Part shown: positions 57,801-60,800 of the stretch, piece after piece
Position numbering within the stretch: the stretch's first letter is position 1
How the letters are laid out: each line of letters starts with the position of its first letter
NCBI RefSeq assembly: GCF_044324875.1
Contig: NZ_CP172185.1
DNA length: 64,000 bases
Direction: 5' to 3' (one strand)
Source: Escherichia coli
Lineage (GTDB): Bacteria; Pseudomonadota; Gammaproteobacteria; Enterobacterales; Enterobacteriaceae
Program-made: the position numbers and the translations under genes
The notes under the pieces: generated by a model
Database searches by the model: none
Told to the model about the DNA's origin: nothing
What the model saw: the letters and a program-made list of their open reading frames with translations, nothing else

Positions 57801-60800
57801 GCTGGGGTACACCATTGCCGTAATTATCCTTCACCTCAATATACAGACTGGTTGTCTCGCCTGCGGAGACTGTATCAAAAAGTGCATGTAGCAAGGTGAG
57901 ATGTGCTGTAGACGCATCCGCGTTGACATTAATTGATGTGCTAAGCGTGGAGCTACCATTTTCCAGACTGGCCTCAACGGTATCCGGTCTCGCTCCTGAT
58001 TCTATCGAGGAGCGGGTATTGGTATAAGTGACGGTAGCCTTACCCTGTTCGTTCGTCACGGCTTGACCGCCGTTCGTCATTTCGGCTGTCGCTGCGTTGC
58101 TGGTGAAGTTCACAGTCACACCTTTCACCGGAAAGCCATTATTATCAACGACTGTGGCCGTGATGACGCTGCCGGTGCTGTTCTGCGGGGTACCGGCGAT
58201 TATGCTGTCTGGGACAGGCGTCAACTCGATAATTTTTGCCGCCGCTGTGTCGCCAATAAAATGCACAGTTTTGTTGTCGCTGGCACCATTATTAGCCAGT
58301 GATGCAGTGACCGTCTGCTCACCAAAGGCAACGCCTGCGAGAGTGGTCTGCGCGATGCCAGACTCATTGGTATTACTCACTCCCGGGGTCAGGGTGAGTC
58401 CTGAAGAGGCTGAGCTGAATGTTACCGGAAGATTGTTCACCTCATTGTCGAACTGATCTTTAACCGTTGCAGTTAGCGTTGCGTTATCGACGCCATTACC
58501 TGTGATCTCATCTTTTGACATCTGCAGGACAACCTGAGCCGAGGTTTTGTCCGCCACAAACGTTACCGGCTGCGAATCACTGGTATTGTTATTACCCAGC
58601 GTTGCGGTAACCGTATGCGTGCCCGCTTTTTTACCTTTGAGCATGACATGCGCTTCCCCATTGGCCTGGGTGATGGCAATGCCGTTATTTTCGAGGGTAA
58701 AGTTTGCCGCCACGCCCTGTGGCATGGTGAAGTTCACCGTTATTCCCGCCACCGGATGATTCGACGGATCTTTCACCGTTGCCGTCAGCTGCACGCTGTC
58801 GCTGTTATTCGTCACCACCTGTTGAGCAGGGATGTTCAGGGTGACCTGCGCGTTGCTGGTATCGGGCGCAATATTGACTGTCGTCGTATAGCCATTGCCG
58901 TTAAGCAGTGTGGCTTCGACTGTATGAACACCCAAAACCGTGCCCTTAAGGGTAACTTCAGCAACACCACTGTCGTTAGTATTGCTTGTGCTCTGACTAA
59001 GTTGAGTATCTGCCGGGTTGGTACTGAAGGTGACCGGTAGATCTTTTACTACGTTATCAAAAGGATCTTTTACTGTTGCTGTCAGCGTCGTCTCATCCAC
59101 GCCATTCCCAATGATTTCCGCTTTCGATGTTTGCAGAACGACAACTGCGCTGTCCTTATCCGCCACGAATGTGACTGGTTGCGCATCGCTGGCATTATTG
59201 TTACCCAGCGTTGCGGTAACCGTATGCGTGCCCGCTTTTTTGCCTTTGAGGGTGACATGCGCTTCGCCATTGGCCTGAGTGATGGCAATGCCGTTATTTT
59301 CGAGGGTAAAGTTTGCCGCCACGCCCTGTGGCATGGTGAAGTTCACCGTTATTCCCGCCACCGGATGATTCGACGGATCTTTCACCGTTGCCGTCAGCTG
59401 CACGCTGTCGCTGTTATTCGTCACCACCTGTTGAGCAGGGATATTCAGCGTGACCTGCGCGTTGCTGGCATCGGGCGCAATATTGACTGTCTTCGTATCG
59501 TTGTTGCCGTTAGGCAGTGTGGCTTCGGCTGTATGAACACCCAAAACCGTGCCCTTAAGGGTAACTTCAGCAACACCACTGTCGTTAGTATTGCTCGTGC
59601 TCTGACTAAGTTGAGTATCAGCCGGGTTAGTACTGAAGGTGACCGGTAGATCTTTTACTACGTTATCAAAAGGATCTTTCACTGTTGCTGTCAGCGTCGT
59701 CTCATCCACGCCATTCCCAATGATTTCCGCTTTCGATGTTTGCAGAACGACAACCGCGTTGTCCTTATCCGCCACGAATGTGACTGGCTGTGCATCGCTG
59801 GCATTATTGTTACCCAGCGTTGCGGTAACCGTATGCGTACCCGCCTTTTTGCCTTTGAGGGTGACATGCGCTTCCCCATTGGCCTGAGTGATGGCAATAC
59901 CGTTATTTTCGAGGGTAAAGTTTGCCGCAACGTCCTGTGGCATGGTGAAGTTCACCGTTATTCCCGCCACCGGATGATTCGACGGATCTTTCACCGTTGC
60001 CGTCAGCTGCACGCTGTCGCTGTTATTCGTCACCACCTGTTGAGCAGGGATATTCAGCGTGACCTGCGCGTTGCTGGCATCGGGCGCAATATTGACTGTC
60101 TTCGTATCGTTGTTGCCGTTAGGCAGTGTGGCTTCGGCTGTATGAACACCCAAAACCGTGCCCTTAAGGGTAACTTCAGCAATACCGTTCTCATTAGTAT
60201 TACGCGCGTTCAGGCTCAGTTGTGTGTCTGCGGGGGAGGTGCTGAAGGCTACTGACAGATTTTTAACCACATTATCAAAAGGATCTTTCACTGTTGCTGT
60301 CAGCGTCGTCTCATCCACGCCATTCCCAATGATTTCCGCTTTCGATGTTTGCAGAACGACAACCGCTCTGTCTTTATCCGCCACAAACGCCATTGGCTGA
60401 GCATCGCTGACATTGCTGTTAGCCAGACGAGCAGTGATCATATGCGTGCCCGCTAACGTGCCGGTCAGGGAGGCGATGGCAATCCCGTTGCTATCCGTCA
60501 TGCCTTTTCCGCTGTTGCTAATCGAGAACTGACTTGCGACGTCGTTTGGCACAGAGAAAGTGATTTCTTTATCTTTTAGTGGGTTGCCATTTTTATCCTG
60601 CAAGGTTGCCGTCAGCTGTTGAGGCGCTGTGTCGGTGACGGTGATCTCGCCTGAGGGCACACGGAGGGTCAGGGCAGCAGTACTTTGATCACCGATAAAA
60701 TTCACCTGTTGATTAGCCTGGGAACCAGAGCTCACAGAGGCCGTAACCGTATAATCACCATTTTTCAAACTAGTCAGCGTGGCTGTGGCGATCCCGTCGT

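Follow-up and report, generated by a model that had tools for sequence, protein, structure and literature searches.

A 64,000-nucleotide (nt) stretch of Escherichia coli DNA (NCBI RefSeq assembly GCF_044324875.1, contig NZ_CP172185.1; hereafter the window) carries a yeeJ-type inverse autotransporter adhesin gene (54874..63489, minus strand) that contains three tandem copies of a 609-nt unit. Comparison with the same locus in other strains suggests that this array is very probably a variable-length segment of the extracellular stalk, and that the three-unit allele arose by unequal homologous recombination from an allele with two units of different type, A and B. The middle unit was painted at the 30–32 sites that separate every A unit from every B unit. 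In all ten three-unit alleles examined, the middle unit is of type B at its 5′ end and of type A at its 3′ end, and unequal recombination of misaligned A-B arrays predicts this order, A-(B/A)-B.

The array occupies 58550..60414 on the minus strand, amounts to 3.06 copies of the unit, encodes six Big_1 domains (amino acids (aa) 1026–1634 plus 12) and lies in frame within the single uninterrupted yeeJ open reading frame (ORF). It was delimited as the best colinear self-match at an offset of 609 nt (58550–60414, 1865 nt, 78 mismatches in 1256 compared positions), and a repeat search returned three copies with spacings of 609 and 609. Tandem Repeats Finder, whose longest period of 500 is shorter than 609, gave no output, and the offset-609 self-comparison was used instead. 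The original prediction, made from the letters of the sequence, had placed three 609-bp tandem repeats at 58480–60420; its period, copy number and rough coordinates stood, but the low-coordinate edge moved to about 58550, as offset-609 identity is just ∼70% at 58414–58550. With unit boundaries drawn at one chosen phase of the 609-nt period, the minus strand encodes unit 1 at 59806..60414 (aa 1026–1228), unit 2 at 59197..59805 (aa 1229–1431) and unit 3 at 58588..59196 (aa 1432–1634). Each 203-aa unit contains two Big_1 domains in Pfam, with E-values of 1e-17 to 1e-19, in agreement with the two Ig-like domains first proposed. BLAST E-values between units are 0.0, which rules out chance.

Within the array, copies of the first domain of the unit are 82–94% identical in amino acid sequence and copies of the second are 96–99% identical, compared with 23–58% between array Ig domains and all other Ig domains of YeeJ. 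The flanking 609-nt blocks, compared with the array in register, show 41–46% nucleotide identity, and the earlier description of the neighbouring Big domains as diverged was therefore borne out. The closest domain outside the array is the Big_1 domain directly distal to it (58255..58533, minus strand, aa 1653–1745), which was placed from the domain identity matrix and offset-609 identity and is 57–58% identical to the first domain of each unit. It is an older relative of that domain and a trace of an earlier duplication.

The units had been called near-perfect copies, a description that did not survive base-by-base comparison. Units 1 and 2 are 92.6% identical (45 mismatches, synonymous divergence (dS) 0.20), units 2 and 3 are 95.9% identical (25 mismatches, dS 0.11) and units 1 and 3 are 90.0% identical (61 mismatches, dS 0.28), with ∼62–64% of the mismatches at third codon positions. 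The mismatches are clustered, so that adjacent units still share one perfect tract of 249 nt and another of 164 nt, which could serve as substrate for further exchange. The longer tract, located by direct string comparison at 59934..60182 (minus strand) in unit 1 and 59325–59573 in unit 2, is the longest perfect homology on hand for further unequal recombination.

The age of the units was assessed against 16 other E. coli yeeJ loci, in which units were cut in register and clustered across 11–16 alleles. Units group by position in the array, not by strain. First units, here termed type A, are 94–99.8% identical across strains, and last units, type B, resemble one another to a similar degree, compared with 88–92% between A and B units of one gene. 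Window unit 1 has its orthologue in the first unit of every other allele, with 94.6–98.9% identity between strains versus 92.6% and 90.0% to its own units 2 and 3, and window unit 3 has its orthologue in the last unit, with 95.2–98.2% identity between strains. Between A and B, dS is 0.25–0.28, compared with a mean of 0.10–0.13 among same-position units of different strains. The 30–32 sites that distinguish the two types are fixed in two-unit and three-unit alleles of many lineages; in the window, unit 1 has the A state and unit 3 the B state at all of them. Since units cluster by position and dS between A and B exceeds that between orthologous units, the A/B duplication predates the sampled yeeJ alleles, and the first and last units of the array are old paralogues.

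These comparisons bear directly on the reading in the original prediction, by which all three units came from one through recent whole-unit tandem duplication within the lineage, with the differences among them being young mutations. Its attraction is that the units are 82–99% identical in amino acid sequence against 23–58% for neighbouring Ig domains, and that perfect tracts of 249 and 164 nt persist. However, 61 of the 609 sites separate unit 1 from unit 3, each of these two is closer to same-position units of other strains than to the other, and the fixation of the diagnostic sites over two- and three-unit alleles in many lineages means that the split predates the sampled alleles. Repeated horizontal spread of a single recent allele would revive recent duplication, but this is contradicted by the dS of 0.10–0.13 among orthologous units. 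Recent duplication of all three units is thus very unlikely. What was retained of the claim concerns the chimeric middle unit, which alone is comparatively young, though its allele class is common to other strains. Substantial third-position divergence, which the prediction had named as the sign of old repeats, was found in part, between A and B relative to orthologous units.

The differences between A and B are unevenly placed. Of the fixed differences, 22–23 of 30–32 lie within 90 nt, at unit positions 144–232 (59574–59662 in unit 2). This patch belongs to the unit's first Ig domain, holds most of the amino acid changes, and reads KNLSVAFSTSPADTQLSLNARNTNENGI versus KDLPVTFSTNPADTQLSQSTSNTNDSGV; the second Ig domain is 96–99% identical between units.

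In the window, unit 2 is of type B at unit positions 1–232 and of type A from position 233. Over positions 1–232 it differs from unit 3 at 8 sites and from unit 1 at 39; over positions 233–481 it is identical to unit 1 and differs from unit 3 at 10. Sites informative within the allele place the main B-to-A crossover between unit positions 232 and 278 (59528..59574, minus strand). Overlapping switches were found in the middle units of NCTC9038 (232–267) and 18KM2445 (228–278), while that of N3 lies at 51–69 and those of E300010 and O166:H15 at 564–606. In NCTC9038 a single switch between that allele's own units 3 and 1 reproduces the middle unit exactly; a chimera this clean, free of private substitutions, indicates a very young event. 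The window middle unit is an older or later-recombined example of the same breakpoint class. The single unit of SHP24 has the reciprocal polarity, 5′-A/3′-B, as expected of a deletion product, so that chimeric junction units of both expansion and contraction polarity occur at this locus. Three-unit alleles are found with both C-terminal tip types; taken with the spread of breakpoints, this speaks for no fewer than three independent expansions. Expansion and contraction of the array by unequal recombination, as originally proposed, thus finds its evidence in the chimeric units.

A patchwork of A and B sequence could also result if the array had three units ancestrally and was homogenised by gene conversion (concerted evolution), one- and two-unit alleles then being deletions. 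The mosaic is indeed patchy in the window, GF43, G1/2, PCN033 and VCSW7, with the VCSW7 middle unit returning to B at its 3′ end, and deletions do occur, as in K-12 and SHP24. Against this, two-unit alleles are roughly 40 times commoner than three-unit alleles, three-unit alleles have both tip types and differing breakpoints, and the one-switch NCTC9038 chimera, free of private changes, is as from a fresh crossover. Moreover, an ancestral third unit would be expected to keep a distinct sequence type somewhere, and none of the middle units shows one. An ancestral three-unit array is therefore decidedly unlikely.

Several observations nevertheless weigh against expansion from an A-B allele, or limit its detail. 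The middle unit of the window bears four private substitutions as well as small patches from the other parent, and over positions 482–609 it departs from one neighbour at 6 sites and from the other at 7. These changes suggest that the event did not take place in the immediate ancestry of this strain and that later conversion or allelic recombination has blurred the chimera. The reversion to the B state at the 3′ end of the VCSW7 middle unit points to gene conversion also being active in the array. Two of the breakpoint classes (II and III) are told apart by no more than one or two fixed sites; judged by such sites alone, the N3 class would be the sole unambiguous separate event, with the within-allele maps carrying the rest. 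Base-by-base inspection covered 16 of ∼2900 alleles. Finally, two length variants have been tested, and biofilm assays showed no functional difference between them (Martinez-Gil et al., PMC5595812).

Array length differs between strains at the same locus, in accordance with the original prediction, and the differences form a tandem-repeat copy-number polymorphism. K-12 has a single 312-nt hybrid domain (protein of 2358 aa), SHP24 has one unit (2465 aa), O157 and E. coli C have two (2660 aa), and the window, GF43, G1/2, N3 and others have three (2863–2871 aa). It was considered whether the third unit, or the copy number in general, might have been misjudged by assembly across a 1.8-kb repeat. 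The region is hard for short reads, and many N-terminal fragments of 1029–1376 aa are present in the 90% protein cluster. However, the units are distinguishable by 25–61 differing sites, the identical 2871-aa protein occurs in NCBI (E. coli) on 63 contigs, the longest of 5.75 Mb, the reading frame in the window is intact, and colinear three-unit arrays are present in about 28 independently finished genomes. An assembly artefact is thus extremely improbable.

The distribution of the array was determined in 5426 complete E. coli genomes. Unit sequence was found in 2910, with at least one full unit in 1272 of these, and a colinear three-unit match was present in 28 of the best 60 records listed. 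About 28 of the 5426 genomes, judged from those 60 records, thus have three units. Three-unit alleles make up ∼1% of genomes and fall into a small number of breakpoint classes, and the two-unit allele, roughly 40 times commoner, is the common long form. A synthetic four-unit query gave no colinear match in the 5426 genomes and was covered just by joined two-unit pieces. Counts of up to four or five matching places per genome were considered as possible extra units, but proved to be off-diagonal matches, as in PCN033 and O166:H15, both of which were listed with 5 places and have three units. Rapid length variation of the contingency type was not seen among the sampled O157:H7 and K-12 derivatives, which share one state each. 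Few distinct recombination events were visible among the 16 other loci sampled, and change in the yeeJ array is slow evolution of alleles as opposed to rapid switching.

The array is also a site of insertion. An IS3-family element lies inside the second unit in E. coli O145:H28 16003 (positions 7567–8865 of the fetched locus L011), and another was seen in DS26-1. The insertion splits yeeJ into two pseudogene fragments and represents an independent route to inactivation of the adhesin.

The short form of K-12 has a different origin. Its array segment joins type A positions 1 to ∼134 to type B positions ∼421–609, forming one in-frame hybrid Ig domain. At the junction lies an 11-nt perfect match, GTGAAAGATCC, which extends with its flanks to 21 matches in 23 positions and codes for part of the LTATVKDP motif common to both Ig domains of the unit. 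The K-12 short allele is therefore a deletion through 11-nt microhomology, and not every event in the array needs long homology. The segment is 906 nt shorter than a two-unit array (two 609-nt units minus the 312-nt hybrid). A 906-bp fragment separates yeeJ of UMN026 from that of MG1655 (Martinez-Gil et al. 2017, Sci Rep 7:11326, PMC5595812), where it was described as three extra Big domains of repeated sequence also present in MG1655 (PMC5595812). Since the sizes are the same, the published short variant is a derived deletion. The window array exceeds that of K-12 by 1515 nt (505 aa) out of a total protein excess of 513 aa, and the size difference from the K-12 protein, noticed at the outset, is thus explained by the array for all but 8 aa, which come from the different distal stalk and tip.

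Taken together, these data are consistent with the following course of events. An old duplication gave the 609-bp units A and B, each with two Big_1 domains, and in most long yeeJ alleles both have kept their place in the array. Pairing of unit B with the unit A of a second copy, on a sister chromosome or on incoming DNA, followed by a crossover near unit positions 232–278, would yield A, a B/A chimera and B. The stalk would thereby gain two Ig domains (203 residues), with reading frame and fold left intact. Other breakpoints would produce other three-unit alleles, the reciprocal product would be a one-unit A/B chimera, and a separate microhomology deletion would account for the K-12 short form.

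As to enzymology, we infer either RecA-dependent exchange, which the original prediction had invoked, or replication slippage, and an effect of stalk length on adhesion is likewise inferred. The perfect tracts of 164–249 nt are long enough for RecA-mediated exchange, given the minimal homology of E. coli RecA; replication slippage between sister strands would yield identical products. The 4–10% divergence between units should depress the exchange rate, in line with relatives sharing one state, three-unit alleles at ∼1% and no four-unit array being seen. The two extra Ig domains should lengthen the stalk. A further, rather unlikely proposal is that YeeJ stalk length is under selection, with recurrent independent gains of a third unit, in alleles that differ in their tips, tuning reach to the thickness of O-antigen or capsule and with the A/B patch at positions 144–232 maintained by selection instead of drift. 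In that case functional exposure of YeeJ would be predictable from the length of the array, an effect beyond the reach of the biofilm assays of 2017, which used a K-12 background.

The adhesin gene of the window is, by locus and by sequence identity, the yeeJ orthologue, and the name given to it initially was kept. Its ORF is uninterrupted at 54874–63564 (minus strand), and a PGAP-style ATG start at 63489 gives the 2871-aa protein. An N-terminal IAT_beta domain (PF11924) at aa 144–419 matches model positions 2–279 of 279 (E = 4.8e-113), identifying the type Ve β-barrel, and ∼22 Ig-like Pfam matches (Big_1, Invasin_D3, Invasin_D4) across aa 533–2752 form the tandem Big_1/invasin-type passenger characteristic of this type. 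A periplasmic LysM domain ahead of the barrel is a feature of YeeJ, IatC and IatD. LysM was not among the 25 Pfam matches in the N-terminal 1000 aa, though aa 1–1025 are 97.6% identical to K-12 YeeJ; in the K-12 protein LysM was delimited with Prosite, and peptidoglycan binding was demonstrated (PMC5595812). Identity to the K-12 protein falls to 83% in the distal stalk, and at the nucleotide level the two genes are 92% identical across 87% of the gene. The last ∼110 aa, a putative lectin-like tip, have no Pfam match, and over the last 130 aa the window and K-12 tips are 45% identical; the K-12 tip was termed a C-type lectin domain in the 2017 paper (PMC5595812). No NCBIfam model scored above its curated cut-off for window YeeJ, the best being the IatC N-terminal model at 1158.8 bits versus 2400, so the protein is not named by NCBIfam. 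The RefSeq name for this allele class is merely ‘Ig-like domain-containing protein’.

The presumed lectin-like tip, the last ∼130 aa (54874–55270, minus strand), occurs as deeply different allelic cassettes. One type is common to the window, GF43, N3, E300010 and SHP24 and is 42–45% identical in amino acid sequence to the type of K-12, O157, E. coli C and G1/2; W5-6 has a third, 68% identical to that of the window. The distal stalk falls into two families (81–83% versus 95%), and tip type and array length combine independently.

The 90%-identity cluster to which the window protein belongs has 1569 members and a representative of 1280 aa. Of the 15 members listed among 40 read, 12 are N-terminal fragments of 1029–1376 aa. 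Since the array begins at aa 1026, short-read contigs appear to stop at or just inside it, and surveys of yeeJ in draft genomes may misjudge presence or length. With the array breaking short-read assemblies and RefSeq names being inconsistent, yeeJ surveys, including genome-wide association studies of adhesins, can mis-score long alleles.

Three repeated ORFs run antisense to yeeJ on the plus strand (58615–59040, 59131–59649 and 59740–60255 in the ORF list), two of them with starts 609 nt apart. Inter-unit substitutions are concentrated at third positions of the minus-strand yeeJ frame, where dN/dS is ∼0.2. This codon-position pattern rules out the antisense ORFs (58615–60255) as genes; they are by-products of the repeated DNA, as first suspected.

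Gene order around yeeJ in the window is like that of K-12, namely mtfA, tRNA-Asn (63802–63877), yeeJ, a GT9 gene (53242–54294, plus strand) and a shiA-sized ORF (51611–52927), and W3110 and GF43 are annotated alike. The GT9 (glycosyltransferase family 9) gene, known in K-12 as yeeL, has an intact ORF of 350 aa in the window and in O157 strain 143 and is annotated as a pseudogene (internal stop or frameshift) in K-12 W3110, GF43 and S30. Farther away, at 30000–50000, propanediol-utilisation (pdu) genes lie beside cobT, cbl and yeeO. This region is at least 80% covered in just 469 of the 5426 complete E. coli genomes, with a best identity of 98.7%, suggesting that the window lineage has no near-identical finished genome.

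Change in domain-repeat copy number is well known in adhesins, and length variation in this same segment of YeeJ has been published, so that nothing here is new in principle. A full-text literature search found no description of the three- and one-unit classes, of A/B units with chimeric junctions or of the microhomology origin of the K-12 form. In group B Streptococcus alpha C/Rib, staphylococcal SasG/Aap and Salmonella BapA/SiiE, whole folded stalk domains are likewise repeated in frame, and copy number shifts by recombination or slippage, altering reach or antigenicity. Arrays in those proteins tend to be runs of many near-identical units that change frequently, whereas the yeeJ array has two diverged unit types, at most three units in 5426 genomes and few distinct events visible among the loci sampled. 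YrIlm and YrInv of Yersinia ruckeri (Wrobel et al. 2018, J Struct Biol 201:171, as cited in PMC6714894) are also inverse autotransporters with tandem, highly similar Ig-like domains, and their repeats are discussed as a source of length variation and assembly problems (PMC6714894). By that description, they differ from yeeJ in species and gene and in having repeats that are reportedly almost identical, against 90–96% identity and no more than three copies in yeeJ. The nearest known system is the pair of YeeJ variants of MG1655 and UMN026 (PMC5595812), which share with the window the gene, the locus and the varying passenger segment. Two variants were recognised in that work, without the A/B unit structure, the chimeric middle unit or the microhomology origin of the K-12 form (PMC5595812); the window allele has one unit more, and a one-unit class also exists. 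The published picture of two length variants is thereby refined to a series of hybrid domain, one, two and three units with a base-level history, in which the K-12 reference form is a derived deletion.

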